From assembly GCA_051362555.1 (NCBI GenBank), contig CM120649.1:17808567-17872566 (forward strand): a stretch of DNA of 64,000 bases, in the 5' to 3' direction. This stretch comes from Lingula anatina. Taxonomy: Eukaryota; Animalia; Brachiopoda. The translations under genes were made by a program, and so were the position numbers. The notes beneath the pieces were generated by a model. The model was not told the DNA's origin, searched no databases, and saw only the letters and a list, made by a program, of their open reading frames with translations. Within the stretch, counting starts at the first letter, position 1, and each line of letters opens with the position of its first letter. Shown piece after piece: positions 11,536 through 50,200 of the stretch.

Positions 11536-13173
11536 TTAGTGTACCCAAAGTTCGCGCACATAACCATTACTCTGGGTGAAGAAAGCCTTTGGGCAGGTAC
11601 CGCTCAGGAACAGTTCCGGTGCCCCTACGTAGTAACAACACGAGCCAATGGTGCCATGGTAACGCCACTGGCCGTTATTGGTGTTTTTCACCTTTAAGCT
11701 GTATATGCGACTGCTCTTGTTGTAGCCAGGGTCCCAGCTGTTGATGAAAATCATTCGCGTTGAGGAGGGGGTATCAGAGATCTGAGCGCATTGGTCCACC
11801 GGGAACGCTCCAGAGATGGTGGTCGACGGTGTGGAGAGAGACCCTGGGGGTTTCCCGTGACAGTACCAGTTGGAAGATCTGTACTCGCATATATCATTGT
11901 CGAAGGTGGTGACGAATACCCCAGCGGGTCCGACAGAGACCCCATGTACGTATTCCCCGGTGGGTTTACCCCTGTAATACCAGGTTGCCACCCCCGGGTT
12001 GGCTGAGGTGATGTACAGGGAGTACAGGTATCTGTTGGCTCCCACGACGAAAACCTGGGTTGAGCACGTGGCCAGGTTGCACGTGGCGATGGCGGCGGGA
12101 CCAATCTGAAACATAATCAATATTTTTTTTCATACATGTATTTCTGAACATGACGAGTCACCGCAACCATTGCTTGCAGTTGCATTGTGTTTTTGTATTG
12201 TTTAACAAACGTGGGCTCAGATTGACTTATTGAATTGTATCTTGTGACATATTGTCCATTTCACAGGGACTTTATCTAGATCTGATACTGGAAGTCTCCT
12301 TACGGGTTCCACTGAATTACTGGGCTATCCTCGCCTGGTCCCAAGTTGTAACCATCAGCTAGCCTTAGAGGGTATCACAAAATTCAATAGCATGTAAACA
12401 CGTAAAACGATGGGACTTTGCATATAGAGACCCTCCTTTTACTATGGAATCTACCCTGATGAGAGGGGCACTGTCCTCTAAATTTAATCTAACGTCAATA
12501 ATAATAATAATAATAATAGTTATAACACGATAACATATAAACGATACGATAATATACACATTTATCAGAAAAGATTCATATCATATCCTTTCTGTTAAAC
12601 ATTACAGCAAGTACTGACATGAACATGCAGCATTGTCTCACTTACCGACGTCCCCGGTGGTGTCCCGTGGTCTCGCCACTCCCAGGCGTTTGAAGACCAG
12701 GACCAATAATGTTCGTAAAGCCTGCTATTGGTGCCCACGGCAAACACACGTGCAACGCCCCCTCCCCCCGAGGTACAGGCACACCCTGAGTACCGCAACG
12801 TCACCCAACCGAATGGTTTGCCGTGAATCGCCCAGAGCCAGGTGCTGGAACCAGTGGACCAGTAGCGCTCGAAAAGCCGTCCTTTGTTGCTGATGATGTA
12901 GACCCTTCCATCTTTCATGACACACGGGGGACCGGCCAAATATTCATTGGACAATAACCCCCAGGGGGCGCCATGGCTAGCCCATATCCAGCTGGAGCGT
13001 TCTTGAAGTTTGCCGTTGCCGACCCCGAAGACTTTATCGCTCCATCCTGATTTCATGTAGGCCATTTCGGTGTAGACGGGAGGCTTGCCGTGATTGGCCC
13101 ATGACCACGTGTCCAGAGCGAGGCACGCGCCACAGAGGAAAAGTGCCAGAATTGGAACGGCTTTAAGCAGCAT
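11536..13173 (-). CDS. Secreted Trp-rich beta-propeller lectin-like protein (fucose-lectin/PLL/tectonin-like fold), 365 aa, 2 coding exons
   Basis: Exons 13173-12646 and 12105-11536 join in phase 0 (PPGTS|IGPAA; gtaagt donor, tttcag acceptor). Signal peptide MLLKAVPILALFLCGACLA. Seven repeats ending W-x-W-x-x-H-G-x-P, most preceded by VF/VY...(G/S)RL(F/Y)E strands. Confidence 0.85.
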
Positions 13174-13460
13174 TCTCAACCACTTGTCAAATGTATGAGG
13201 AGCCAGTCGGTGTCCTGAAAGATTATACAAATCAACACCTTGGTGTTAATTAAGAATAAAAAGCCATGGAGCCTGTTTGACAAAAGAAATTAAGCCGAGC
13301 TTGGTTTTAAAGAAATTACCGATAAATCCGTGTGTTTGAACCCATTAAAAACTATGATCATCCGTAAGTTGTGTTGATTGGGCATTTGTCACTACAAATA
13401 AGAAATAACATATATATCATATCAACAGTTGCTGTTTTTTTACCTTTGTTTTTATAATTT

Positions 13461-13920
13461 TGTTATAGTGAGGAATGACGACAGCAGTTTGGAGCTTTCG
13501 AACGTTTATTCACCGACTCTCTTTTTCACAGAATGTACAAGTTTTTATACACTATTTTCCATTCTCAAATTTCCCATTCTCATATTACAAAACTCTATTC
13601 AATATTTCCTAATTTAGTAATTTAAGTGAAACTTGTTTATGATTTAAAATATTTAAAATATTTTCCGAATTACTCATCTTGGATCCTGTCCAATTCAAGT
13701 ATACATGAGTTCTACACGTGTTAAACACGCGCAAATCGATAGAAAAATTAACCAACTATTTTGGACTCTGAAACGTTCCACCCTTTCCATCTTCGAGAAC
13801 AGTCTCTACACTCGTTGACACTTTAAGAAATTTACTTTGTACTCGATAACTTTCTACACATTTGATTCTGTTTTAATTGTTTTGTAATTGCCGAAAGTGT
13901 ATGTCATTTGCTTTACAACA
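13461..13920 (-). repeat. 3' LTR (460 bp)
   Basis: By eye identical to 20048-20517 except two substitutions and a 10-bp deletion; minus-strand TATAAAA and AATAAA (13510-13505). Confidence 0.97.
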
Positions 13921-14812
13921 TACACCCCTTCTTCAAAAGAATTCGTCCTCGAATTCTAAAACTTTACAACATACGCTCCTTTTTCATTTTTTCGAAAGCA
14001 AAGCAAATACTAAAGAATACAAAATACGTAAATTTTCAAAAAGATTAAATGATAAGGTCACATATATGTCATCAATTTAAATGTTATACGCAAGTTCGTC
14101 AATTTCTGCAAAATGAAATAAAATAATAATGAAAGAAAATAATGATTATCTTCCTTAAATACTTCATTTCTACCACAAAGTCATGCAAAAATATAACTAA
14201 GAAAAGTAATTCTATATAATTAACTTATACATAAAGTTAAAAACACATTCGACATGAAACAAAAAAAAAAAAAAAAATATCACCTGAAGGAAGATAATGT
14301 AATAACTTTTTTTAAGAAAATGCAATTCTTCATTCCGGGGTAATGTCAGTGACTGACTTGTCAAAACATCTCGTCTGTATTTTGTCAGTTTACTATGCCT
14401 TCCATTATGATGTGGCGTGAATCTTGTGATAACTTGTATTACATCGTTTGGATGTAACGTTTACTCATATGAATAAGATCAATCTTCTTTGTTAAAAAGT
14501 TCTTCAGAAACAAAATTGTCTACACTCAACACCGCTGAGCGTGCTGATGCTGCCACAACATTACAGTAAAAATTCATAGAATCATGATTTCAAAAGGTCA
14601 ATGCTCATGGCTTTTTCAGTGTATACTGCATTAACTTAGCCTCTTTTAGAAAAAAGAAAATAAGAGTAGACAGAAAAATAGTAAACCGGTTTACATTTAA
14701 GGTTCAGTTAAGCTGTCTCACTGTTGTCCAAATTATACATTTGACCTCTGTGTACTTTTTTACAACGTGTAAGTGTACTATCTTTTTATTTACCAAGAGA
14801 TGTGTTTCCTTT

Positions 14813-17623
14813 TCAATTTCTACGTTTTCTTCGTCTTCCTTGTAACGTCTTATTGATATGATAATCTCTTTTTAATGCATCTGAAATATTTTCTTCAGGT
14901 TCCCAGGAAGTGTTCTTATAACCCTTCCATTTTACTTTGTAATGTCTCTTTGTGTTTATATTCTTACAACATAACAATTTTTCTACTTCATAATATTCGT
15001 ACGCGTCTTGCTTACTATCCGATGCAAGTTCCGCTTTATCTGTGTCATGAACGTCTCTATCTTGCGTTTCACTGGTTGTTTTATTCCCATTTGATTTGTT
15101 GTCTTGCTCATAATTACTTTCATTCAGCCTTTCGTATTTATTGTAATCTTTAGGGTCATAATACATTTTCAATCTGTTTGCATGAACAGGCGACTTATGT
15201 TCCTTGTGTGTTTTACAATCTCTCAAATAATACGTGCACCCTGTTGATAATATCTTTGTAATATAATATGGTCCTTTGTACTTGGTGTACAATTTAGAAC
15301 TTAATCCTTTAGGTGTCATTGGAGTATATATCCAAACTCTATCACCTACTTTATAACTCGGTTGCTTTGATTTAAGGTCATACCTTGCTTTATACTGTTT
15401 CTGAGCTACTTCCCTATTCTTTGTTGCAATTTCTTTTGCCGTTTTAAGGGCATCTTTCAATTCTTCAATGTACTGAGGTAAATTTTTATTCTCATGATGT
15501 TCAGGGATTAAATCACTATCCAATGGCGTACGCATTTCTCGTCCAAAAACTAAATAATAAGGAGAAAACTTTGTAGACTGTGTACAAGGAGTTGCACGTA
15601 ATGCCATCATTACTCCTGGAAGGATATCAGGCCAATTAGTTTGATCTTTCTCACAGTATGCTCTCAAAGTTTGAGCAATTATTGAATTAGTTCTTTCACA
15701 GGCTGCATTGCTTTGTGGATGCCATGCGCTAGTATGATAGCGCTTGATATGGAATAATTTACACAGCGATTGAATAATTTGAGACAAAAAATTCTTTCCT
15801 CGATCAGAAACGAGATATGACGGACAACCATATCTTGTAAACACTTCTCTGTAAAGAGTCTTGGCGATTTCTTTGGCTTCCTGAGTTTTCAAAGGTATTG
15901 CTTCAGCAAAATTAGAAAAAGAACACGTTACCAACAAAATGTACTTATATCCTTCTTTTGATTTGATTAAGGGACCTAATATATCCATATGCATTCTTTC
16001 AAACACGCCTGCGATGGGTAAAGGATTCAAAGGTGCTGGAGCATCTCTACGCAAATGCTTAACCTTTTGGCACACTTCACATGATTTGACGTACTCCATG
16101 ACGTCTTTATAAAGTGACTTCCAAAAATACTTATTCCTAATGGAGGCAAAAGTTCTATCACAACCTTGATGACCGCCACCTGTCAAGGAATCATGATATG
16201 TATGTAAAACGTCGCTTCTGAGTGTTTCAGGGACAGCTAATTGTTTTATTATTCGCAGCTTCTCTGGCATTCCTCGCGAACGCGGTTGATAAAGGTGATA
16301 CAAAACGTCATCTCTCATCACGTATTGATCTGATTCTGCGATGATTTTACGCGCTTGTTTCAAGTCGTCGGGTAAATCGTTTAGTTCCAGATATCTTATT
16401 ATATCTTGAAATTCAGGACATTCACGTTGGTCTTGTTTTAATTTTTCTTTCTCGTCTACATTTGTAACATCAACAACGTTTATGTCATCACATTGACTTA
16501 AGTGCTGCTCACTTCTCAATTTGCTAGTTTGTTTCGGTAAGTACAGCCTAGCTTGGGTGAAATTTTTATCTTGACACCTGTCAGTATCATCCGCGCTTAA
16601 GTGACTATCGTTGCTAACGGTATCTAAAACATTTACTGGTTCATATTCGCGTCTTGATAGTGCATCAGCTGGGTTTGTTTTTCCAGGTCTGTGTATTATT
16701 TCAAAATCTAAGCCTTGTAATTTTAATGACCATCTGATAAGCCTGCCAGATGTATGTTTCACATTTTGTAGCCACGAAATTGCTTTATTATCTGTATACA
16801 CTTTGAAGTGATTGTTAGACAAATATTGTTCAAATTGCTTTATTCCTTCAATAACTGCTAAACATTCTAATTCGTGAATGGTGTAGTTCTTTTCCGCGTT
16901 GTTCAAAGATCTCCCTCCATACGCAATAACTCTATCATGGTTGTTGTCATTCTTTTGACCTAAAATATAACCTATAGCTGTCGTAGATGCGTCCGTTGTT
17001 AATGTAAACTCGCGCGACATATCTGGATAAGCCAGTATTGGTGGTGACATTAACGCTTCTTTTAATGTTTGAAATGACGCTTCACATTCAGGACTCCATA
17101 AGAATTGTACATCTTTCCTTAAAAGTTTATTTAAGGGATCTGCTATTTTACTGAAGCCTTTTATAAATTTTCTGTAGAAGTTACACAACCCTAAAAAACT
17201 TCTTACATCTTTAACAACTTTTGGTGTTGGAAACGATTTTATGGCTTCAAGATTTTTCTCGTCTGGTCTTATTCCATTTTTATCAATTACATGACCTAAA
17301 TATTTAGCTTTTGGTGTTGCAAACTTACATTTTGATGGTTTTAGTCTAAGGTTTGCAGATCTTAGTTTTTGGAATACTTGATTTAAATGTTTTAAATGAT
17401 CTTCAAACGTCTTACTCATGACCAAAATGTCATCAATGTATATCAGTATTGTTTTCCAATTCATGTCTCTAAAAATGTGACTCATTAAGGCCTGGAAGCT
17501 AACACCAGCGTTACGAAGGCCATACGCTAAACGTAAGAATTGGAAGTGTCCGTGGTGTGTGATGAACGCAGTCTTGTGTTTAGTTTCAGGGTCAAGAGGT
17601 AATTGCCAGTATGCGCCTGCCAT
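14813..17623 (-). CDS. pol: Gypsy Pol remainder: RT, RNase H, integrase, chromodomain
   Basis: RT YIDD; RNase H TTDAS...ELECLA...YTDN; integrase H..GHQG..CEVC, HMD, SDRG, ERTN; GPY motif; C-terminal YEVEKLL...YKVKWKGY..SWEPEENI. Confidence 0.95.
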   Translation of the reverse strand: MAGAYWQLPLDPETKHKTAFITHHGHFQFLRLAYGLRNAGVSFQALMSHIFRDMNWKTILIYIDDILVMSKTFEDHLKHLNQVFQKLRSANLRLKPSKCKFATPKAKYLGHVIDKNGIRPDEKNLEAIKSFPTPKVVKDVRSFLGLCNFYRKFIKGFSKIADPLNKLLRKDVQFLWSPECEASFQTLKEALMSPPILAYPDMSREFTLTTDASTTAIGYILGQKNDNNHDRVIAYGGRSLNNAEKNYTIHELECLAVIEGIKQFEQYLSNNHFKVYTDNKAISWLQNVKHTSGRLIRWSLKLQGLDFEIIHRPGKTNPADALSRREYEPVNVLDTVSNDSHLSADDTDRCQDKNFTQARLYLPKQTSKLRSEQHLSQCDDINVVDVTNVDEKEKLKQDQRECPEFQDIIRYLELNDLPDDLKQARKIIAESDQYVMRDDVLYHLYQPRSRGMPEKLRIIKQLAVPETLRSDVLHTYHDSLTGGGHQGCDRTFASIRNKYFWKSLYKDVMEYVKSCEVCQKVKHLRRDAPAPLNPLPIAGVFERMHMDILGPLIKSKEGYKYILLVTCSFSNFAEAIPLKTQEAKEIAKTLYREVFTRYGCPSYLVSDRGKNFLSQIIQSLCKLFHIKRYHTSAWHPQSNAACERTNSIIAQTLRAYCEKDQTNWPDILPGVMMALRATPCTQSTKFSPYYLVFGREMRTPLDSDLIPEHHENKNLPQYIEELKDALKTAKEIATKNREVAQKQYKARYDLKSKQPSYKVGDRVWIYTPMTPKGLSSKLYTKYKGPYYITKILSTGCTYYLRDCKTHKEHKSPVHANRLKMYYDPKDYNKYERLNESNYEQDNKSNGNKTTSETQDRDVHDTDKAELASDSKQDAYEYYEVEKLLCCKNINTKRHYKVKWKGYKNTSWEPEENISDALKRDYHINKTLQGRRRKRRN

Positions 17624-17666
17624 ATCTAAACTAGAAAAATATCTAGCACCTGATGTACCTATCGTT

Positions 17667-19823
17667 TCAAAAACATCTTCTAAACGTTGGTAGTGGCCAG
17701 TGCATGGGTTTTGTGACTTTGTTCAACTTCCGGTAATCAATCGCGAATCTGTATTCTCCATTTTTCTTTTTTACAAGTACTACTGGACTACTGTACTCGC
17801 TCATGCTTTCTTCGATTATGCCATGTTTTAACATATCGTCTACTTGTTTGACAATTTCATCTTTCAACTTTGGTGACGCACGATAAAATGTTTGTTTAAC
17901 AGGGATATCATTTATTGTGTCAATTCTATGTTGATACATATTTGCTGAACCTAACTCTGATAGATTGGTAGCAAAAACTTCACGATTACGTCCTAACAAA
18001 ATTTTCAACTGTTGTTTCTGATCTTCACTCATGTCTGAATCGGCAAAGTTTATATTTAATTCATCTGCATTCCGCAATGCTTCTTGATCTGATAACCTCT
18101 CACCTTTTTGTGCTGTATCTCCCTTTGACATTTCATTTAAAGCACTGACGCTTGCCAGACTCACTGAACTTGCAACAGCTAATATTGTTCTTTTAGGAAT
18201 AAAAATACTTTCATCGCTAGGGTTCATTATTCTGTAAGCGGATTTATTTTTATCAATGGAAACCAAACATTTTGCTCCGATAAGTTTTTTCTTTGACTCG
18301 AGCTTTCGTACTGGTTCTAGTAAAGCTACTGAAACAGAGGAAGAATGTGATATTTTCACTGGTATTAAGCATTCACATCTTGGTGGAATAAATTCTGATT
18401 TAAAGTTACGCACTAAACCTAATACAGGTGGACTATACAAAGGTAAGAGCAAATTATAATCAGGCAATGCCATGCTATCAGACGATAAATCAATTTTTAC
18501 ATTGTGTTTTCTTAAGAAATCTGTGCCTAATATCAAACCTCTTGGCAATTGACTAAATACGTGGACTTTATGCTTTATGATCACATCACCAAAACAAAGA
18601 GGTAACTCTACTTTTCCTAAAACTTTGATCACAGATCCATCAACAACTGAAACTTCTTTTAAAGATGGTTTTTCGTATGCATTTCGATCTTTCTTTCCTA
18701 GTTTTGATAAAAGAGATTCTGATACACAAGATATGACGGCACCTGTGTCAACCAAAGCATTGACATGTTGTTTGTCGATTTGAATTGATATTAGATTATT
18801 AGCTTGGTAATCGGAAATAATAGAAATTGGCACTTTTTTATCTTCAGTTTTGATATAAAACCTATTCCTCTTTCTTAGTCGTTTGTTTACACGTGTAGCT
18901 TGACAGACTTTCGCTACGTGCCCAATCTTACCACAAAAATAACAACTAAAACTGCGAGCAAAACAATTTGGTCTAAGATGCGTGTACTCACCACATCCTT
19001 GACATCTTGGCCATTTCTTTATCGGTTTGCTCTGTTGAGGATAACTCGAACGTTCAACTGGTGGTAATCTGTGATCTGGGCGTCGCAGATAAATGTTTCG
19101 CTGGAGCATACGTCTTGGGCCGTTGGCGTTGTGCCAGAACTTTTTGGGAGGCGCATAAGGACTCGCTCTTGGGGGTGCCAAGTTTCTTTCATCACTAGTT
19201 AGCTTTGGGTTTTGTACCATGTGGATCGCCGACTGTGCGCTGGTACGTACGGCATCACTGATGGAGTTCTGCAACGCGTCTATTTTCTCCGTTATCATCT
19301 TTATTTCAGTTCGTTGGTTTCTTTTGCTCGGCTGCACCGCATTTTCCGCGATGCGCGCATGGTGCATCAAGGACTCAAAATCAGATGGCTCCCTCTGCAC
19401 TACGAAGGGGCGGATCTCGGGGAGTATCCCGTTTATAATCACCGTAAGGGCCGTTCCCTCATCTAAACGCGCACGTTTGGCGTCGTGGCGCATTGCCGCA
19501 ATGTAGTTCTGCACCGGTTCTTCTGGCAGCTGATGCCGTCTAAAAAATTCTGAAGCTCTCGCCCACGTTTCTCCGTCTCTTAGTTGGTACCTGGCACGGA
19601 ACTCGCGGACGAGCAATTCCCAATTTTTTTGTACTGTAGCTGGCAACAACTCATACCAGTCTATGGCGGATTGCTTGAGCAACAGAGGAAACAAGGCGGT
19701 AATTTGGACTTCTTCTAATTTTTTATACAGTGTATAGTTTTCAAACTGCTTTAGCCACCTTTCGATATCTTCGTTTCCGTTACCAGAAAACTTTTCTGGC
19801 GCCAAAGATAAATCTGAGGACAT
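17667..19823 (-). CDS. gag-pol: Gypsy Gag-protease-RT(N-terminal) ORF, cut by a +1 frameshift
   Basis: Gag capsid-like start PEKFSGNGNEDIERWLKQFE; two CCHC knuckles (CQGCGEYTHLRPNC, CYFCGKIGHVAKVC); aspartic protease LVDTGA; RT start SSPVVLVKKKNGEYRFAIDYRKLN. Confidence 0.93.
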   Translation of the reverse strand: MSSDLSLAPEKFSGNGNEDIERWLKQFENYTLYKKLEEVQITALFPLLLKQSAIDWYELLPATVQKNWELLVREFRARYQLRDGETWARASEFFRRHQLPEEPVQNYIAAMRHDAKRARLDEGTALTVIINGILPEIRPFVVQREPSDFESLMHHARIAENAVQPSKRNQRTEIKMITEKIDALQNSISDAVRTSAQSAIHMVQNPKLTSDERNLAPPRASPYAPPKKFWHNANGPRRMLQRNIYLRRPDHRLPPVERSSYPQQSKPIKKWPRCQGCGEYTHLRPNCFARSFSCYFCGKIGHVAKVCQATRVNKRLRKRNRFYIKTEDKKVPISIISDYQANNLISIQIDKQHVNALVDTGAVISCVSESLLSKLGKKDRNAYEKPSLKEVSVVDGSVIKVLGKVELPLCFGDVIIKHKVHVFSQLPRGLILGTDFLRKHNVKIDLSSDSMALPDYNLLLPLYSPPVLGLVRNFKSEFIPPRCECLIPVKISHSSSVSVALLEPVRKLESKKKLIGAKCLVSIDKNKSAYRIMNPSDESIFIPKRTILAVASSVSLASVSALNEMSKGDTAQKGERLSDQEALRNADELNINFADSDMSEDQKQQLKILLGRNREVFATNLSELGSANMYQHRIDTINDIPVKQTFYRASPKLKDEIVKQVDDMLKHGIIEESMSEYSSPVVLVKKKNGEYRFAIDYRKLNKVTKPMHWPLPTFRRCF

Positions 19824-20047
19824 CTTCGTCTTTTTTCAGTTATTAATAGTTGCTAGGGTAATGACTTTTAGTTATTTTCATTACTCAGCATACTCGGTTT
19901 CCTCTGCGCTGAGACACTGACGATGTTTGCCTCTGGGTGGATGGTGTGAACTCATCGGTGTCTACGCTCCTGCTGCCGTCATCACCATAACTTTATCGCC
20001 GTTCCGCTTGCCTCGGTAGAGCGGGGATCGATTTTTCCTCCACCACT

Positions 20048-20517
20048 TGTTATAGTGAGGAATGACGACAGCAGTTTGGAGCTTTCGAACGTTTATTCAC
20101 CGACTCTCTTTTTCACAGAATGTACAAGTTTTTATACACTATTTTCCATTCTCAAATTTCCCATTCTCATATTACAAAACTCTATTCAATATTTCCTAAT
20201 TTAGTAATTTAAATGAAACTTGTTTATGATTTAAAATATTTAAAATATTTTCCGAATTACTTATCTTGGATCCTGTCCAATTCAAGTATACATGAGTTCT
20301 ACACGTGTTAAACACGCGCAAATCGATAGAAAAATTAACCAATCGGATCCAACTATTTTGGACTCTGAAACGTTCCACCCTTTCCATCTTCGAGAACAGT
20401 CTCTACACTCGTTGACACTTTAAGAAATTTACTTTGTACTCGATAACTTTCTACACATTTGATTCTGTTTTAATTGTTTTGTAATTGCCGAAAGTGTATG
20501 TCATTTGCTTTACAACA
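20048..20517 (-). repeat. 5' LTR (470 bp)
   Basis: Direct repeat of 13461-13920; begins TG, ends CA, followed by the PBS. Confidence 0.97.
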
Positions 20518-33380: not shown

Positions 33381-34919
33381 AAAAGGTATAAAATCAAGGG
33401 AATGGAAATTAAATGTAATGCTTTGGATACCCCCCCCCCCCCCCCCAAAAAAAAAAGATGTTTCGTTTAATTTCTGAATGAATTCTGAATTAATGCTATG
33501 TAAAGGATTTCTTCGGCTGTTTAAAAACTCAGCACAGAAACAGCCTGTTTTAACCAATAGTTTTAACCACAAGTTAATTTGCGCTCCACTTTTTCGGTGT
33601 CCATCGTGTTGCTTTCATCGGGGAAAGCTGAGCTCATTATACATGTAATCTGTGCACGCACGACAGGAATTGCCGTGATAAAACTAACCCCGGCGATGTA
33701 TGTTTTTACCTTGTTGATGTTATGTACAAAAACTATAATTCTACTTAAGTTTCTCTGGGAGGTAATATGCATGCATTGTTTTTAGATCAGGAAGCAGGAG
33801 CACCACGAACGTGTTGACTTCAAAGAATCTATAGGATCACTCCTTGATGCGACTTTTTCTGTATGGCAAAGAAGCTCAAGAGCAGAAGGTCACGCGGTGA
33901 CGGAATCAGGTAGGAGGAGCGCTACTAGCTGACAAAAGTATTCACCCCCAACTTTAATTATTACATCTCTCTTTTCAGTTGATTTTCATTTTGGTATTAT
34001 AATTTATCAACCTTATTGCATAATTATCTTCACTTTCCTCGTGACGAATATCCCGGTAACTCCCTTCGCCACAAAAAGTTTTCATATAATTATTAAACAT
34101 AGCAAAAAATTCCTGTCTACTTTTGTAGTATTATAAACGTATTCATCTCGAAGTTTATTTATATTGTACATGGCGTCAACATATTTGCATAGATGACGTC
34201 AACAGATGTTACAAATATCCTTAGATAATCAATTTTGCAGCAGGGAACTATTTTCTCTGTGTGTGTCATAAATCTAGTTAGCGTAGAATATTAGCAAAAT
34301 GACTTCATATTATTTAAGTAGTTTTGGTCATGGGTAGGCCTTTATTTTATTTTGCCATTCATACTTATTTTATTGGAGGACCGTCGCACCGTCAGATGAC
34401 ATTTGAAACAAAGGGATGAAATGTTAGAGCCTTATGGGTCTATCTTTAAGTTACATGACAAATATCAATATTTTATTATCATTATTTGTCTAAAGGAATT
34501 TGATGATTATCATACCGTGTTCAAACATATTCGCTTGCGCCTAAAATGAGGGACGCCAACATACATGTACATGGATTAATATTTTTACTATTTCAGTCAG
34601 CTTATATAACCATTGTTGTTTTTTATTTAGGTTAATATTTCAGACAAACTTTTATAAACGCTGAGGGTTCAAACGCAAAATGGCCCGTATTCGACACACG
34701 ATCACTTTAAGTCATTTTTTTTAATAAAGCGGGACGATGGATGATTATCATTATGCTAACAAGCAGAGTGTGACACCAACTGTGGTTTCCTATCTGAAAG
34801 CTCAAAGCTGAAGTCACGTCGCTATACAAAGGGATTTCGAATTAACTTGAGTATTCAACGAACAGAAAACGAGCAACCAGCAGTAAAGTCAACGCAGCAG
34901 TAAACAAATACCTTTGTGC

Positions 34920-35200
34920 GTATAGAGAACAGTAAAGGAACTAACCCTCTGCTCAGAGCAGGGAGACCATGGTATACCACTGCCTCTGTGTGCTAGTAAA
35001 GAACAGTAAAAGGAAGCAACATTCAGCCCAGTGCAGGGCGACAGTCGAGATACCAGTGCAGGAAGGCAGCCGTTATACCAGTGCCTCTATGTGCTAGTAG
35101 AGATTAATAAAGGAAGCAAAGCTCGGCTCAGAGCAGGGAGACAGTCGATATACCAGTGCCTCTGTGTGCTAGTAGAGAATAGTAAAGGAAGCAACGGTCG
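34920..35200 (+). repeat. Degenerate tandem repeat of about 75 bp upstream of the Roco ATG
   Basis: agaa.agtaaaggaa.caa....gctcagagcagggagac...tatacca.tgcctctgtgtgctagta repeated about 3.5 times. Confidence 0.75.
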
Positions 35201-35714
35201 GCTGCCTTAATTTCTGTGCTATAAGAGTACAGGAACCAACAGTACAGGAACCCACAAAGCCTAGTACAGGAATAAGGTAACACTTTCATTACCTTTGTGT
35301 GAGTAAAGGGATTATACTAGTGCAGGAATGCTGTAAATATACCGGTATATTTGTGTGCTGGGAGACCACAACCATTGGAAACACAGTCAAGTGGAAGAAA
35401 ATTGGCAAACTTGAACGATTTGCTTTTTAATGATAGCTGCACAAAAACACACTCAGGCTCTGGTCTTCGTGTGATCCACTTACTTTAAGCAAAGGTTGAC
35501 ACCTTCCTATATCATGTTGCTGCTTCACACAATCTGGTTAACTTTCAAGGCAAATCATATCCTTTCCGACAACTTGGAGTGTAGCCTGGTCGTGAAATGC
35601 ACAGTAATTGGTGTATCAAACAGGGCGTTCACCCTTCTTTTAATTCCCGATTGGTAAAATAGTTGCGAATTATCTTTACGCATTTTCAGTTTCACATGTA
35701 CATGTACAATTAAA

Positions 35715-38700
35715 ATGGCTTCATCTAAAGACGATATGTTTGAGACTTTATATTGCCGAGAGTATGAAAACAAAATTCAAGATGGTGATGACGAAATTAT
35801 GACTTTTCCTTTAAGTGACGCAAATGAAAAATTGGATCACCAAGGTGATGCACATCAAACCTTCGATGGCGACCAAGAAAAACTTGACATCCTTATTAAA
35901 CTGGATGAAGATCCCTATTACCAAGGACCAGGCACGGACCAGGCAGAAACTTGGACAGACCTCAAACTTAGAGGGTTAAGACGCAGAATCCCTGAGAGCA
36001 TATCACGTTGTAAAAGCCTTAGGCTACTTGATATTTCCAATAACAGTCAATTGGACAAAGAGGAAATAGTGAAAGTCTGTGGGTTGGAGACCGTGAGAGA
36101 GTTAAACATGTCTAATTCCAGTATAACTACAATGCCGCCATACATAACCATACCCAAGCATTTGACGAAACTTAACTTGTCCCAAAACCAATTAACAGAA
36201 CTCCCGTTGCAGTTATTTAACCTCGTGAAACTGGAGGAGCTTGACCTAAAACACAACAACATAACATTCATTAGACCACAAGTAAAGCAATTTTGCAGCT
36301 TGAAGAAGTTAAACCTCTCCAACAACCCTTTAGGAGAATTCCCTCTCGAAGTGTGTAACATACAGATGCTGGAGTATATTTCCCTGGCGCAAACTGGCAT
36401 TAGAACAGTCCCACAAAATATAAAATTACTTGGAAACTTAAAAGGGTTATGCCTGTCGTCAAATTGTTTAAAAGAATTCCCATTGCCTCTATGTGAACTG
36501 GGGGAATTAGAGACCTTAGATATTTCAAGAAATGTCATCACTACAGTGCCACTTGAATTAAGGCAACATCAGCATTTGAACAAATTTGACCTGTCTCATA
36601 ACAAGTTGGAAGTACTTCCACTGCCAGTGTGTGAGTTGGTCACACTGGAGACACTTAACCTCAGTGGCAACAACATCACTACAGTGCCACCTCAGATATC
36701 ACGACTTAAGATTCTTAATGAATTTAACCTGTCTGAGAACAAGTTTGAAGAATTTCCGTTGCCAGTGTGTGAGTTGGTAAGACTGGAGAGACTTTTCCTT
36801 AAGGGCAACAACATCACTACAGTGCCACCTAAGATATCACAACTTAAGAATCTCAAGGAATTTGATCTGTCTGATACGAAGTTGGAAGAATTCCCGCTAC
36901 CAGTGTGTGAGTTGTTGAGATTGGAGACACTTATACTTTGGACAATCAAAATCACTACAGTGCCACTGCAGATTACACAACTTCAGAATCTGAAGGAATT
37001 TTACCTGTCTGGTAACACGTTGGAAGAATTCCCCCTACCAGTGTGTGAGTTGGTGAGATTGGTGACCCTTGTACTTTTGGCAAATGGAATCACTACAGTG
37101 CCCCCTAAGATTACACAACTTCAGAGTCTTAAGGAATTTTACCTGCCTAGTAACAAGTTGGAAGAATTTCCACTACCAGTGTGTGAGTTGGTGAGACTGG
37201 TGACACTTGACCTCAGTGACAACAACATCACTACAGTGCCACCTCAGATAACACAACTTAAGAATCTGAATTGGTTTGACCTGTCTGCTAACAAGTTGGA
37301 AGAACTCCCATTGCCAGTATGTGAGTTGGTAAGACTGGAGACACTTGTCCTTAAGGACAACAGCATCACAACAGTGCCACCTCAAATGACAGAACTTATA
37401 AATCTGAAAGTATTTGACCTGTCTAATAACAAGTTGGAAGAACTTCCGCTGTCAGTGTGCGAGTTGGTGACACTGGAGGCACTTGACCTCAGTGACAACA
37501 ACATCACTACAATGCCATCTCAGATATCACAACTTAAGAATCTGAAGGTATTTTACCTGTCTAATAACAAGTTGGAAGAACTTCCGCTGTCAGTGTGCGA
37601 GTTGGTGAGACTGGAAACACTTGTTCTTAAGGACAACCACATTTCTACAGTGCCACCTAAGATTACCCAACTTAAGGATCTGAAGAAATTTGATCTGTCT
37701 GATAACAAGTTGAAAGAACTCCCGCTGTCAGTTTGTGAGTTGGTGAGGCTGGAGACACTTATACTTGGGGGAAATCACATCACTACAGTGCCACCTCAGA
37801 TAACAAAACTTGAGGATCTGAAGGTATTTGTCCTGTTTAATAACATCTTGAAAGATCTTCCGTTGTCAGTGTGTGAATTAGTGAGACTGGAGATACTTAG
37901 ACTTTGGGGAAATCACATCACAACAGTGCCCCCTCAGATATCACAACTTAAGAATCTTCAGGTATTTGACCTGTCTAATAACATGTTGGAAGATCTCCCG
38001 CTGCCAGTTTGTGAGTTGGTGAAACTGGAGACACTTAACCTCAGAAGCAACAAGATCACTACAGTGCCCCCGCAGATTACACAACTAAAGAATCTAAAGA
38101 TCTTGGACCTACATGGTAACTGGTTAGATCTCCCGCTGCCAGTTTGTGAGTTGGTGACACTGGAGACACTTGTCCTCTGTGCCAATAAAATGACAACAGT
38201 GCGACCTGATATATCACAACTTAAGTATCTGAAGGAATTGAGACTGTCTAATAACAAGTTGGAAGATCTTCCATTGCCAATGTTTGAGTTGGTGAGACTG
38301 GAGACACTTGATCTCAGTGACAACAAAATCACTACAGTGCCATATCAGATAACACAACTTAAGAATCTGAAGGTATTACACCTTGTATGGAATAAATTAA
38401 TACAGCCACCACAGGAAGTAGCAGACAGAGGAAAAGAAGCCGTTTTTAGATATTTTAATGATCTTATCAGGACCAAAGCTACAACGTCATCAAGACTCCA
38501 GGTGCATATCCTTGGTGAAACATGCGTAGGGAAGACAAGTTTGGTGAAAACTCTGACATCAGGTACCCCTTTCTTAACATCTATGGCAGACAGAACACAT
38601 GTCATGGAGCAGATCGCGTGGTCGCCAAAGGAAGATGTTTTTCTCAACATAAAGGATTTTGGTGGTCATGAAGTCTACAGAGTTGCACATAACTTCTTCA

Positions 38701-41225
38701 TTTCAAAGGAAGCACTCACACTGATAGTGTTTGATCTCCAGGATGTACCTTTGAAATATAAAGCCACAGTCACAAGCTGGATAGATAACGTTTACAGCAG
38801 AGCACCAGATTCAACTATATTGCTTGTAGGTTCGCATGCAGACTGTCTGAGCAATGAGCAGGAGTTGGAAGCCAGAAAGAAAGAGGTTTTGTGTGATCTC
38901 GAATCTCACTTACGCGATAAGGCATCTAAATTAAGAACGAGTCTGGAAGAATTAGAGAAGAGGACTGAATTATTCAAAAACTCATATGCAGAGGCCTTCG
39001 ATGAAAAGATGATGCACATCAAGAGGCTAATAGAAAATCCACCACGTGTTGAGAAAAGTGTTTTTGTCACCAGTTCTAGAACTGGACATGGAGTGGCCAA
39101 GCTTAAGGAGGAGATAATCAGAAGAGCTAAAGTAAAGGAATTGACACTTCCTGAGGCATGGCTGCAGAAAGTGGAGCAAATAGAGAGAGCAAAACAGAAT
39201 GGGCAAGATCCTTTCCTAACTCTGGACACAATGACAAAGAAAACACCTACACAAATGCAGGGAGATGGCGATGCTCAACGTATCGAAGATGTATTGAATT
39301 TCTTACATGCTACAGGTGTTGTTCTTTGGTTCAGAGATAATCCGTTGTTGAAGACCTACGTATTCCACAGACAAGATGTTTTCATTGATATACTAAGAGC
39401 TGTCCTCTGCCACAATATTGATTCAATTCTTGTGTATGATACCGAACCTTTCAACAAGAAGTACAGCAAAAGGAAATTTGAATCAGCAAAGGAAGATGTA
39501 CTGCGAAGAGGTATCGTCAGCAAAACCATGTTGGAGTGTTTATGGTGGCGATTTAACTTTGGAAGACGCGACCTTGAAGCCATGTTAGAGTTGTTAGAGA
39601 ATTTTGAGATTTGCTACCTTGTAAAAGGTGCTGATGAAAACCAATACCATTTCCCATGGCTTCTGAATGAAGATAGACCCAAATGTATTTCCTCAAAATG
39701 GCCATCTGTTCCATCAAAAGAGAAGTTGCAAATTTCGACTGAGATCCATTTTCCAACTGCCTGTCCCCCTGGTCTCTATGAGATTGCAGCAGTGCATCTC
39801 CACGGTTGTTTAGGACATTACAAATCAACACGTCAAGACTGGAAAGATGGTTTTTATGCTGAACTCGACAGCCAGTTCCAAATGTGCTTTGAAAGAAGGC
39901 TCAGTGGAAGGTCACCCAATGGAGTTCTTCGACTTTTCATACGCGGTGAAGATCCCATTCAACTGAAGAAGCACATTCTGGTGATATTTCAGGATCTTGT
40001 AGACCTTGTAGAGAGAGAATGTCCTGGTTCTCCTCGCGATGAATTTGTGGTGTGTCCACACTGTGTACGAGAGGAGAAGAATCCACCAACCCTGTTTGAC
40101 TCCCCTAAGTTTTTACTTAGTGTTCCCCTTGAAGAACCAGCACCTTATCATCCATGTCCTGAGGAAGACCCTAACACTTTGGCCTCAGCAGACTACTTCT
40201 ATCCAGTTACGAAAGGTAAATACAATTATGCTATGATATCATATTCTCAAATTAGGTTGTGCATTGCACTATGGATTAATATATCTATTCATCAACTTGA
40301 GTGAATTATAATCTTTTGATATCAAAGATATTAGAGCAGGCATTCCCCACTTGTGATTATATTATTTAAGTTTTCCAAAGCAATGTTTGTGTATTGGTAA
40401 TCGGTCGTTTCTTTCGTTTAAATCTGAAGACAGCATTCATTTTTCTTTTCTTTTACAGGAAAAATGACAGCTGTGCACTGTACATCCCTTGACAAACACG
40501 CTAACCACACTGTGAAGATCATCCGTAGTACATTTAACGGTCTCTGCAAGATACTCAGTCGACTCGGTAAAACTGGCATATTAACTGAGGAAGAAAAGGC
40601 GGCAATTCTAGAGCCAGATGCAGATGATAGACTTTCAAGTTTCCTTAAAGGCAAGAATGATTCTGCCTTTTTCGTTTTTTGTGGTGCTCTTCACGACAGT
40701 GGACATGCGCAAACGGCTCGGATGTTGAGGTAGGTTTTTGAGAAGGCGTGCAGGTGCTGATTTCACAGTGGTACTTCGGCCCAAGCAAAAAATGGTCTCC
40801 TTTCCCCAAGTGTAAGTTAATATAACCACTGTTGTGATTCTGGCTCAACATATTGCATAATTACTGCCAAAATGCAACATAGATACTTTAAAGGCAGAAA
40901 AAAGAATTGTTCGATTCAAATTGACTCAACTTATTATCTTTAAACGTACCCTATTTTTTCTATAATTCACATCAGGTTACCTGACTTGGCTATGGAGCTA
41001 TCAGACGTCGCCCTCGGTGACGTATTGCAGAGATTGCTGGACCGAAGGGTGATATCAACGAAAGAAAATTACACCGTGCGACGTGAGCCAACCAAAGCAC
41101 TTAAAGTCATAGCCCTACTTAAGAAGTTAAGGGAGGGCAAGCGAGATGACGAGGCAGAGAGCGCCTTCATTGAATTCGGTAAAGCCCTAGATGAAGAAAT
41201 TGCCAAACGGAAAAACACTTATTAG
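35715..41225 (+). CDS. Roco-family protein (MFHAS1-like LRR-Roc-COR) with two C-terminal CARD/death-fold domains, about 1673 aa
   Basis: Exons 35715-40215, 40459-40729, 40976-41225 (GT-AG; phases 1 and 2 compatible). About 35 LRRs of 23 aa; Roc G1 GETCVGKTSL (near 38514), G2 DRT, G3 DFGGH, G4 GSHAD, G5 TSS; COR (LPEAW...FLHATGVVLWF...FPWLL...CPHC). Exons 2 and 3 each show the L...G(I/V).T.EE...I...L..K...AF..F..AL pattern of CARDs. No kinase domain. Confidence 0.9.
36618..38400 (+). repeat. Coding tandem array: 13 x 138-bp (46-aa, two-LRR) units
   Basis: PL(P/S)VCELV codons recur from 36618 to 38271 (1653 nt = 12x138 - 3; one unit has a one-codon deletion). Scaffold DNA is nearly identical between units. 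Confidence 0.95.
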
Positions 41226-47200: not shown

Positions 47201-50200
47201 AAAAATGCAATCAACAAGAATTTTCAAAATACGCAAAAAATATATATAACTTAAAATGGTACAATCAAAGTTAAGTTAAGGTAGGTCAAAGGTCAATTTC
47301 AAGGTCACAGTAAATTGACTTTCTATTCAACTACAATAGCAGTGTAACTTTGGAGATAAAAGGGAAGCAAAATTTGCAAAGTTCAGTTCATGATGATAAG
47401 TAGGTCAAAGGTCAATTTCAAGGTCACAGTAAGATTGCCAGTATATGACTTCCTATTCAAGTTCAATAGTAACTATGGACCTATCTCTGCCAGTTTTGGA
47501 GATAAAAGGGAACCAAAATTTGCAAAGTTCAATTCATGATAAAAAGTAGGTCAAAGGTCAATTTCAAGGTCACATTAAGATTGCCAGTATATGACTTCTT
47601 ATTCAACTTCAATAGTAACTATGGACCTATCTCTGCCAGTTTTGGAGATAAAAGGGAACCAAAATTTGCAAAGTTCAGTTCATGGTGAAAAGTAGCTCAA
47701 AGGTCAATTTCAAGGCCACATTTGGATTGCCAGTATATGACTTCATATTCAAGTTCAATAGAAACTATGGACCTATCTCTGCCAGTTTTGGAGATAAAAG
47801 GGAGGCAAAATTTGCAAAGTTCAGTTCATGGTGAAAAGTAGGTCAAAGGTCAATTTCAAGGTCACAGTAAGATATCCAGTACATGACTTCCTATTCAACT
47901 TCAATAGTAACTATGGACTTATCTCTGCCAGTTTTGGAGATATAAGGGACTAAATGTTATAATTTTGGAGTTGCCATAATGTGCCATAAATTTCCTACGG
48001 AAAAAATTAATTAAAATAAAGAAAAGGTCATTTTGGTAAAAATTCCTGAAATGGGAGGTGCTCTGAAGTTTCAGATGTTCAAATTTGATGAAATAATGTC
48101 ATTTTCGACCACAAGTTGCCTGCTTTGCCTAGCCTTATGTTTTATTTTTCCGGAGTTCAAAATTTATTATCCATTACTGTACTGCACATTTTGCTTTAAC
48201 CACCAAAATGTACTTTTTGATACAGCGTAACTTTGCAGATAAAAGGGAAGCAAAATTTGCAAAGTTCAGTTCATGATGAAAAGTAGGTCAAAGGTCAATT
48301 TCAAGGTCACAGTAAGATTGCCAGTATATGACTTCCTATTCAACTTCAATAGTAACTATGGACCCATCTCTGCCAGTTTTGGAGATAAAAGGGAGGCAAA
48401 ATTTGCAAAGTTCAGTTCATGGTGAAAAGTAGGTCAAAGGTCAATTTCAAGGTCACAGTAAGATATCCAGTACATGACTTCCTATTCAACTTCAATAGTA
48501 ACTATGGACCTATCTCTGCTAGTTTTGGAGATAAAAGGGAAGCAAATTTTCCAAAGTTCAGTTCATGGTGAAAAGTAGGTCAAAGGTCAATTTCAAGGCC
48601 ACATTTAGATTGCCAGTATATGACTTCATATTCAAGTTCAATAGAAACTATCTCTGCTAGTTTTGGAGATAAAAGGGAGGCAAAATTTGCAAAGTTCAGT
48701 TCATGGTGAAAAGTAGGTCAAAGGTCAATTTCAAGGTCACAGTAAGATATCCAGTACATAACTTCCTATTCAACTTCAATAGTAACTATGGACTTATCTC
48801 TGCCAGTTTTGGAGATATAAGGGACTAAATGTTATAATTTTGGAGTTACCATAATGTGCCATAAATTTCCTACGGAAAAAATTAATTAAAATAAAGAAAA
48901 GGTCATTTTGGTAAAAATTCCTGAAATGGGAGGTGCTCTGAAGTTTCAGATGTTCAAATTTGATGAAATAATGTCATTTTCGACCACAAGTTGCCTGCTT
49001 TGCCTAGCCTTATGTTTTATTTTTCCGGAGTTCAAAATTTATTATCCATTACCGTACTGCACATTTTGCTTTAACCACCAAAATGTACTTTTTGATACAG
49101 CGTAACTTTGCAGATAAAAGGGAAGCAAAATTTGCAAAGTTCAGTTCATGATGAAAAGTAGGTCAATAGTCAATTTCAAGGTCACAGTAAGATTGCCAGC
49201 ATATGACTTCCTATTCAAGTTCAATAGTAACTATGGACCTATCTCTGCCAGTTTTGGAGATAAAAGGGAACCAAAATTTGCAAAGTTCAATTCATGATAA
49301 AAAGTAGGTCAAAGGTCAATTTCAAGGTCACATTTAGATTGCCAGTATATGACTTCCTATTCAACTTCAATAGTAACTATGGACCTATCTCTGCCAGGTT
49401 TGGAGTTAAAAGAGAAAGAAATTAGCAGAGTTCAGTTCATGGTGAAAAGTAGGTCAAAGGTCAATTTTAAGGTCACATTTAGATTGCCAGTATATGACTT
49501 CCTATTCAACTTCAATAGTAACTATGGACCTATCTCTGCTAGTTTTGGAGATAAAAGGGAAGCAAAATTTCATAAGTTCAGTTCATGGTGAAAAGTAGGT
49601 CAAAAGTCAATTTTAAGGTCACATTTAGATTGCCAGTATATGACTTCCTATTCAAGTTCAATAGTAACTATGGACCTATCTCTGCCAGTTTTGGAGATAA
49701 AAGGGAAGCAAAATTTGCAAAGTTCAATTTATGGTGAAAAGTAGGTCAAAGGTCAATTTCAAGGTCACAGTAAGATTGCCAGTATATGACTTCCTATTCA
49801 ACTTCAATAGTAACTATGGACCTATCTCTGCCAGTTTTATAGATATAAGGGACTAAATGTTATAATTTCGGAGTTACCTTAATGTGCCATAAATTTCCTA
49901 CAGAAAAAATTAATTAAAATAAAGAAAAGGTCATTTTGGTCAAAATTCTTGAAATGGGAGGTGCTCTGAAGTTCCAGAAGTTCAAATTTGATGAAATAAT
50001 GTGATTTTTGAACACAAGTTGTCTGCTTTGCCAAGCCTTATGTTTTATTTTTCCAGAGTTCAAAATTTATTATCCATTACCGTACTGCACATTTTGCTTT
50101 CACCACCAATATGTACTTTTTGATACAGCGTAACTCGAAAACCGTATGGAATACAAAAAAACGGAGACCACCCCCAGTGTTGGGCTTTACATGCTCTACA

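Follow-up and report, generated by a model that had tools for sequence, protein, structure and literature searches.

A spliced Lingula anatina gene encoding a kinase-less Roco protein with a variable leucine-rich repeat array and two CARD-type domains

A stretch of 64,000 nucleotides (nt) of the Lingula anatina genome (assembly GCA_051362555.1, contig CM120649.1, positions 17,808,567 to 17,872,566; hereafter the window) contains a real spliced gene of three coding exons at 35715..41225 on the forward strand. By Pfam matches and predicted folds, its product has the order LRR-Roc-COR-CARD-CARD: an array of leucine-rich repeats (LRR), a Roc GTPase with its COR domain, and two CARD-type domains at the C-terminus. 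This protein is a member of the Roco family and not an NLR, and probably works like an NLR, combining an LRR sensor that has a variable binding face with a death-fold effector. The NLR-like logic proposed in an earlier note, made from the letters of the window alone, is upheld by the variable LRR face, the expansion of the gene family and the swapping of effectors among relatives.

Coding exon 1 (35715..40215), delimited by its open reading frame, Pfam matches, donor site and phase, encodes amino acids (aa) 1-1500, comprising an acidic N-terminus, the LRR array, Roc and COR. Intron 1 (40216..40458; 243 nt, phase 1) falls at the boundary between COR and the first CARD (CARD1), which is encoded by exon 2 (40459..40729), and intron 2 (40730..40975; 246 nt, phase 2) separates it from exon 3 (40976..41225), which encodes the second CARD-type domain (CARD2) and ends with the stop codon; all of these features lie on the forward strand. 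Both introns are of the GT-AG type with pyrimidine tracts, and the joined exons form a frame of 5022 nt (1673 aa) with no internal stops. The exon ends that the earlier note had placed at 40215/40459 and 40729/40976 are exact, and the unspliced 1529-aa open reading frame (35715-40304) was rejected as the true product in favour of the three-exon spliced frame. Exon 1 is probably only the first coding exon. A non-coding first exon is likely upstream, at about 34800-35276 and 35690-35714; reads cover 34801-35402 and fall to zero at 35403-35703, a donor-like site is present at 35277 and an acceptor-like site at 35689, and the splice rows shown include no joint for this putative exon. No second family member was found elsewhere in the window by tblastn with nine relatives as queries.

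Seven of nine listed RNA runs of the same species were mapped, using 6-30% of the reads of each. At 95% likeness, 5, 2, 22 and 4 reads mapped in four runs, in which no splice joint was listed; at 85% likeness, 1089, 1505, 674 and 4 reads mapped in four runs, only 22, 35, 13 and 4 of them being at least 95% alike. The predicted GT-AG joints were spanned at 85% likeness by 30 reads (intron 1) and 35 reads (intron 2) in four runs, and in 18 further reads the intron 1 donor was joined to an exon 2 that begins at a slightly shifted position. Because most of the junction reads are less than 95% alike, they come largely from paralogs or divergent alleles, and the evidence at 85% likeness speaks mainly for the family and not for this copy. 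Direct splice evidence for this copy is provided by run X5, in which all four reads are 95-99% alike and two span junction 2. Close relatives in RefSeq share the splice points, the two junction windows being identical at 21/23 and 22/23 positions to those of the closest relative, P0004 (XP_013414975.1). The joining of the three exons, which had been predicted without any reads, is thus seen in reads mostly of paralogs and again in RefSeq models.

Two further observations were made in the read data. Family-level reads at 85% likeness number 674-1505 in three runs of one study versus 4 in X5 of another, and the contrast between X7-X9 and X5 stands at a similar number of reads examined; it may reflect tissue- or condition-specific expression, or animals of different lineage. 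In run X8, five reads with three different starts lead from 41221, where exon 3 ends, back to 40455, at the start of exon 2, and a GT donor lies directly after the stop codon at 41225. These backward reads may derive from a back-spliced circle of both CARD exons, or from a paralog with a repeated CARD cassette.

The class of the protein is set by exon 1, in which Pfam recognizes LRRs, a Roc GTPase core (aa 930-1043, 38502..38843; E 8e-14) and a COR-A domain (aa 1146-1317, 39150..39665; E 1.4e-10), both Roc and COR-A being above the cut-off. The COR-B region (39741..40215), which ends at the donor of intron 1, is weak here (E 0.004) and above the cut-off in relatives such as P0010 and P0019. 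Roc is directly followed by COR, the arrangement that marks a Roco protein. The nucleotide-binding motifs G1-G4 (P-loop GxxxxGKT, G2 Thr, DFGG and a G4-like xHxD) are present and conserved among paralogs, and the best solved relatives by sequence in the PDB are prokaryotic Roco proteins and LRRK2. Across the three exons, Pfam identified no protein kinase domain, in agreement with the earlier description of the gene as kinase-less and at odds with LRRK1/2 and DAPK1, and no NACHT or NB-ARC domain, the NTPase being Roc. With neither a STAND ATPase nor a kinase, identity with an NLR, an LRRK or DAPK1 was rejected. MFHAS1/MASL1, defined by having no effector domain, does not describe the protein either, as two CARD-type domains follow COR.

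The LRR array consists of 33 regular units (aa 150-907, 36162..38435; 32 of 23 aa and one of 22 aa), established by unit count and Pfam LRR matches, in which types A and B alternate. Repeat finding resolves much the same DNA into a 138-nt tandem repeat with two LRRs per unit (36536..38377; 13.4 copies, 79% matches). The six closest relatives possess 22, 19 (a partial model), 27, 16, 14 and 14 units. Ratios of nonsynonymous to synonymous divergence (dN/dS) were compared over 25 of the 33 units (13 of type A and 12 of type B, with units 1-6, 29 and 33 excluded): dN/dS was 1.35 at six exposed concave positions (bootstrap over units 1.04-1.72), 0.11 in the LRR core and 0.37 elsewhere. Only 5 of 18564 column sets reached the nonsynonymous difference (pN) observed at the concave positions, and the exposed faces of all 25 units are different. 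Such a pattern is compatible with a binding surface that evolves under diversifying or relaxed selection. New specificities are likely to come about when copies of the 138-nt two-LRR unit are gained, lost or mutated within one exon.

Sequence matches of the tail to CARD are borderline in the window itself: exon 3 alone matches Pfam CARD just under the cut-off (E 1.3e-4; 22.4 versus 23.9 bits), and exon 2 alone is below it (E 0.072). In the nearly identical P0004, two CARD stretches are above the cut-off (32.2 bits). The tail was modelled on P0004, which is identical to the window at 84/90 residues of exon 2 and 83/83 of exon 3, and the model has six plus five helices (predicted local distance difference test score, pLDDT, 94; predicted template-modelling score, pTM, 0.87). 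CARD1 is predicted to be a complete six-helix CARD; its nearest structure is the Apaf-1 CARD (Z 14.2, root-mean-square deviation 1.4 Å over 87 residues), followed by that of caspase-9 (Z 13.2), the first 27 rows of structure matches are nearly all CARDs, and Foldseek agrees, with zero rows reaching E 0.001. Exon 3 of the window folded alone gave five helices (pLDDT 87). The top ten structure matches of CARD2 are CARDs at Z 8.6-9.7 (unrelated rows at most 7.0), values under the caution level of the tool for helical bundles, and Foldseek is led by the CARDs of CARD8 (TM 0.72) and RIP2. CARD2 is accordingly described here as a predicted CARD-like domain of five helices with a long last helix, resembling the CARDs of CARD8, RIP2 and NLRC4; ARC and ICEBERG, which are inhibitory CARD proteins, are also among its matches. 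Of the two six-helix CARDs expected by the earlier note, the first is thus predicted as such, and the second has five helices.

CARD1 and CARD2 are identical at 20 of 63 aligned residues (E 0.018). A simple recent duplication of one CARD exon is not indicated, and was rejected, because the phases of exon 2 (1 and 2) are asymmetric and the two CARDs are barely alike. The exon shuffling suggested earlier is plausible where COR meets CARD1. Taken as a unit, the tandem cannot be superposed on the 2CARD of RIG-I (root-mean-square deviation about 14 Å). Word-based searches with each CARD exon among longer proteins, which are weak evidence, returned only family members (2 and 5 matches) and no CARD donor gene or partner, and the protein atlas contained no usable match for the tail.

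Eight of the nine matches in a Roc-COR search are models of Lingula anatina, most of them automatically named "MFHAS1 homolog", and P0004 is the closest (Roc-COR 92% identical). P0004 has the same architecture and splice points (COR 339/360 identical) and differs in having 22 LRR units versus 33, an N-terminus identical at 95/130 positions, and no identical LRR unit among the best matches; it is either an allele or a recent paralog of the window gene, and its name is automatic only. Protein databases, on which the count of the family rests, hold 22 relatives named as Lingula, and since three pairs more than 98% identical may be alleles, about 19 loci are estimated, most with one or two CARDs. 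P0010 looks like two genes fused in one model. Among 19 Lingula-named relatives scanned for Pfam CARD, 14 pass, three are below the cut-off and two have no match, and seven Lingula RefSeq models have two CARDs after Roc-COR.

A FastTree phylogeny of 87 Roc-COR rows, midpoint-rooted and built without named vertebrate MFHAS1 (rows of less than 440 aa coverage and unnamed rows past P0090 were left out), groups the window gene with 19 Lingula-named rows and a single unnamed row in one clade (Shimodaira-Hasegawa support 100). Within it an eight-row subclade with the two-CARD genes is nested among one-CARD genes, and another two-CARD Lingula protein, P0073, falls outside the clade on a long branch. 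The Lingula LRR-Roc-COR-CARD expansion is real and apparently undescribed. The family may already be listed in a Lingula immunome paper of 2018 in Dev Comp Immunol. The literature search, outside which that study lay, found neither a publication about the Lingula family nor one about a Roc-COR-CARD protein that had been tested, and none pairing Lingula with MFHAS1; Roc and COR are unmentioned in PMC6321704 and PMC12373286.

The place that the CARDs occupy behind COR is filled in various ways by other animals. Querying 1.84 billion representatives yielded 98 proteins at E up to 1e-30, with the 150 best listed, and 51 of 157 relatives examined have a tail of at least 60 aa after COR. Pfam was used to scan 43 proteins chosen for their tails or CARD matches, 11 of them Lingula-named. 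The other 32, non-Lingula or unnamed and picked for their tails, include 11 with Death, five with GT4-conflict, two with CARD, one each with caspase, OTU, trypsin and FYVE/MYND, and ten with no tail match. In amphioxus alone the tails comprise CARD, two CARDs, Death, caspase, OTU, trypsin and GT4, and among the named carriers Death tails are also found in two bivalves, an annelid and a sea anemone. In one tree clade of ten rows (five named amphioxus), caspase, Death, OTU and GT4 tails are attached to closely related cores. Amphioxus P0067, P0056, P0046, P0048 and P0029 are LRR-Roc-COR proteins that end in a caspase (QACRG motif), OTU, a GT4-conflict glycosyltransferase or a trypsin-like domain, and the amphioxus expansion looks more varied than that of Lingula, in which the tail is CARD only. 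Roc-caspase fusions are reported from Owenia (PMC11463336) and, in supplement rows, from a sponge (PMC8195603).

A Cys motif at the end of COR is present in 72 of the 157 relatives, 45 of which end soon after it. In 31 of these 45, a dipeptide such as read-through of a phase-1 GT donor would produce is found no more than one column away from intron 1 of the window gene, versus 0-4 of 45 in flanking columns; such a dipeptide is also found in 8 of the 27 long-tailed relatives. These patterns in protein alignments suggest wide conservation of the post-COR intron and truncation of many seemingly tailless models.

The architecture, for which the earlier note knew of no characterised protein, is not unique. 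Besides the seven Lingula models, amphioxus P0088 (XP_078673421.1, ten cluster members) carries a pair of CARDs (Pfam CARD 106.8 bits) behind an LRR and Roc-COR-like core, the latter matched at E 1.5e-35. Combinations of Roc-COR with CARD or Death have also been published for Trichoplax (PMC4104024). P0088 differs in lying outside the Lingula clade, in having its CARDs spaced apart and in being conserved across several Branchiostoma genomes, judging by database names only. Trichoplax adhaerens has at least 17 Roco genes, with Roc-COR accompanied by CARD, Death, LRR and TPR domains, and an NLR-like role has been speculated for LRRK2 and MASL1 (PMC4104024); its lineage expansion is as in Lingula when compared by domain content, not domain order, and the text on it carries no LRR selection analysis, unlike the present study. 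Vertebrate MFHAS1/MASL1 (Roco group 1) is likewise LRR-Roc-COR with no kinase (PMC6337361, PMC3995007), but consists of LRR and Roc-COR only and is one of four vertebrate Roco genes, whereas here there are two CARDs and about 19 loci; the account of three Roco groups in the same review names none with LRR and a death-fold tail (PMC6337361).

In bacteria, LRR-AP-GTPase-COR proteins have been described as NLR-like systems against invaders (counter-invader proteins), and their effectors are of at least 24 types. These proteins likewise combine fast-evolving LRRs and Roc-COR with a C-terminal effector that can be exchanged (GT4, TIR, caspase, trypsin) and with many paralogs (PMC8195603). The same traits recur here, namely fast-evolving N-terminal LRRs (with the caveat that the repeats are non-independent), a C-terminal effector that varies from animal to animal and also among the proteins of amphioxus, and more than a few paralogs in a genome. 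Those systems are described for bacteria, with animals only as supplement rows (COR+Death and COR...caspase) and with defence predicted there too, and the part of supplement file 4 searched gave 0 matches to "COR+CARD" (PMC8195603). Brown-algal LRR-ROCO candidate immune receptors also form an expanded LRR-Roc-COR family with diversifying LRRs; their published description gives every LRR an exon to itself, which is shuffled or alternatively spliced, and mentions no death-fold tail, whereas here all LRRs share one exon (PMC11378527). Anemone LRR-Roc-COR-TIR (PMC5094078) and Aplysia Roco-TIR and Death proteins (PMC9334734) are proposed immune genes; LRR-Roc-COR-TIR and Roco-MyD88-like proteins are described in anemones and Aplysia as candidate components of the Toll-like receptor (TLR) pathway (PMC5094078, PMC9334734), and a coral MFHAS1-like gene is reported to be down-regulated on symbiont contact (PMC8861010). 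For Trichoplax, bacteria and brown algae, as well as for anemones and Aplysia, the concept of a Roco immune sensor has thus already been published. With NLRs (NOD2, NLRC4) and RIG-I the protein shares the logic of a sensor repeat or domain, a nucleotide switch and a CARD output, but the order is reversed, LRR first and CARDs last, and the switch is a Ras-like GTPase and not a STAND ATPase or helicase.

The favoured function, which we consider about evenly balanced between right and wrong, is that of a cytosolic NLR-like immune sensor whose LRRs bind a microbial or damage ligand and whose CARDs recruit a CARD caspase. At rest the protein would be closed and its CARDs unavailable. RIG-I is activated by release of its CARDs, and the same may apply here, rather than assembly of an NLR-type ring. 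Ligand on the concave LRR face would favour the loading of Roc with GTP, and the protein would open at the hinge between LRR and Roc, as bacterial CtRoco does; CARD release is the more likely because CtRoco, with GTP bound, takes the form of an open monomer whose hinge is the LRR-Roc linker (PMC11052575). This monomeric state, the reverse of ATP-driven oligomerisation in NLRs, also makes the "dimerising" switch of the earlier note too simple. The freed CARD pair would then seed CARD-CARD assembly with a Lingula CARD caspase (caspase-Y), resulting in cell death or an inflammation-like output. Lingula is reported to have six caspase-Y paralogs and neither APAF-1 nor caspase-2 (PMC11463336), and to have CARD-NACHT-LRR receptors and gasdermin E (PMC11508797).

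Several points weigh against this function. The excess of dN/dS over 1 is modest, the LRR units share history and are non-independent, and exposed LRR positions vary in many non-immune proteins. Few reads at 95% likeness or above indicate that the copy is weakly expressed in the runs mapped, and P0067, the Roc-caspase of amphioxus, comes from an old gene model of hypothetical status and could be a false fusion. Since ordinary CARD-NACHT-LRR receptors are reported in Lingula (PMC11508797), loss of APAF-1 needs no Roco substitute. Human MASL1 forms complexes under the control of GTP binding and becomes more toxic when this binding is lost (PMC3995007), so that the nucleotide state proposed here as active may be the wrong one of the two. 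Because CARD2 is without a sixth helix and resembles the CARDs of CARD8, RIP2 and NLRC4, the partner could be an adaptor. The ligand, the partner, induction and phenotype are all hypothetical, and the immune function is one that we infer.

An adaptor as partner would make the protein an immune sensor of another kind, in which the CARD pair signals through a MAVS-like or RIP2-like adaptor or kinase to NF-kB or IRF, as the tandem CARDs of RIG-I and NOD2 do. The presence of two CARDs in tandem, the leading Foldseek matches of CARD2 and the TLR-pathway candidates of anemone (PMC5094078) and Aplysia (PMC9334734) speak for it; it is nevertheless unlikely, as the tandem does not superpose on that of RIG-I, apoptosome CARDs rank first for CARD1, and relatives carry a caspase in the same slot. 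Rather improbable is a MFHAS1-like or DAPK1-like scaffold for development, stress or routine cell death, with LRRs that drift by unequal crossing-over and no selection by pathogens. The automatic annotation, the many non-immune roles of vertebrate Roco proteins (PMC6337361), the tandem repetition of the LRR DNA and the lower bootstrap bound of dN/dS, close to 1, are consistent with such a scaffold, but about 19 loci, variation of the binding face with conserved core and convex positions, and conflict-type effectors in relatives fit an arms race better.

High LRR diversity suits any recognition task, and so would agree with recognition of non-self within the species, of symbionts or of guarded host proteins. 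Alternatively the two-CARD form could be a brake, its incomplete CARD2 capping the filaments of one-CARD paralogs, which the five helices in both models and the matches to ARC and ICEBERG recall; CARD1 is complete, however, and a simple brake would not be expected to expand as the two-CARD clade did, to eight rows and with LRR arrays that grew. We regard this group of readings as quite improbable. Whatever the role of the family, the copy in the window might itself be a nearly silent or dying duplicate, given 2 to 35 reads per run at 95% likeness or above compared with 674 to 1505 family-level reads in three runs; the stop-free 5022-nt frame, canonical splice sites, the presence of all G motifs and the low dN/dS of the LRR core make this very improbable.

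A broader proposal, which we advance tentatively and with slightly less than even belief, is that the immune sensor suggested for Lingula belongs to a second, largely unrecognised class of intracellular immune receptors of invertebrates, parallel to NLRs. Its members would share a single-exon LRR-Roc-COR chassis and a conserved phase-1 intron after COR, behind which Death, CARD, caspase, OTU, trypsin and GT4 exons are swapped; brachiopods and amphioxus would have expanded it separately, and the Lingula CARD members would be GTP-switched platforms for caspase-Y. If so, the innate immunity of animals would have in Roc-COR an alternative to NACHT that is driven by GTP, and many of the genes named "MFHAS1 homolog" in invertebrates would be uncounted immune receptors. 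A kinase-free Roco protein with a CARD output could serve as a clean reporter for the active nucleotide and oligomer state of Roc-COR, which is debated for LRRK2, and the family offers candidate activators of CARD caspases in a lineage reported to be without APAF-1.

The remainder of the window contains several other features. A Gypsy-type long-terminal-repeat retroelement with a chromodomain integrase occupies 13460-20517 on the minus strand, with gag-protease and reverse transcriptase-RNase H-integrase open reading frames in two frames; because its long terminal repeats are 99-100% identical, it is a recent insertion. Beside it, also on the minus strand, are two 192-aa open reading frames with Trp/Gly/His-rich repeats (11536-12114 and 12595-13173, the second with a signal-peptide-like start), which have no Pfam match at E 0.01 and may be parts of one gene; their repeats recall a beta-propeller lectin. 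A 146-nt satellite of about 17 copies is located at 47349-49852, and a 20-nt minisatellite, also of about 17 copies, at 824-1153.

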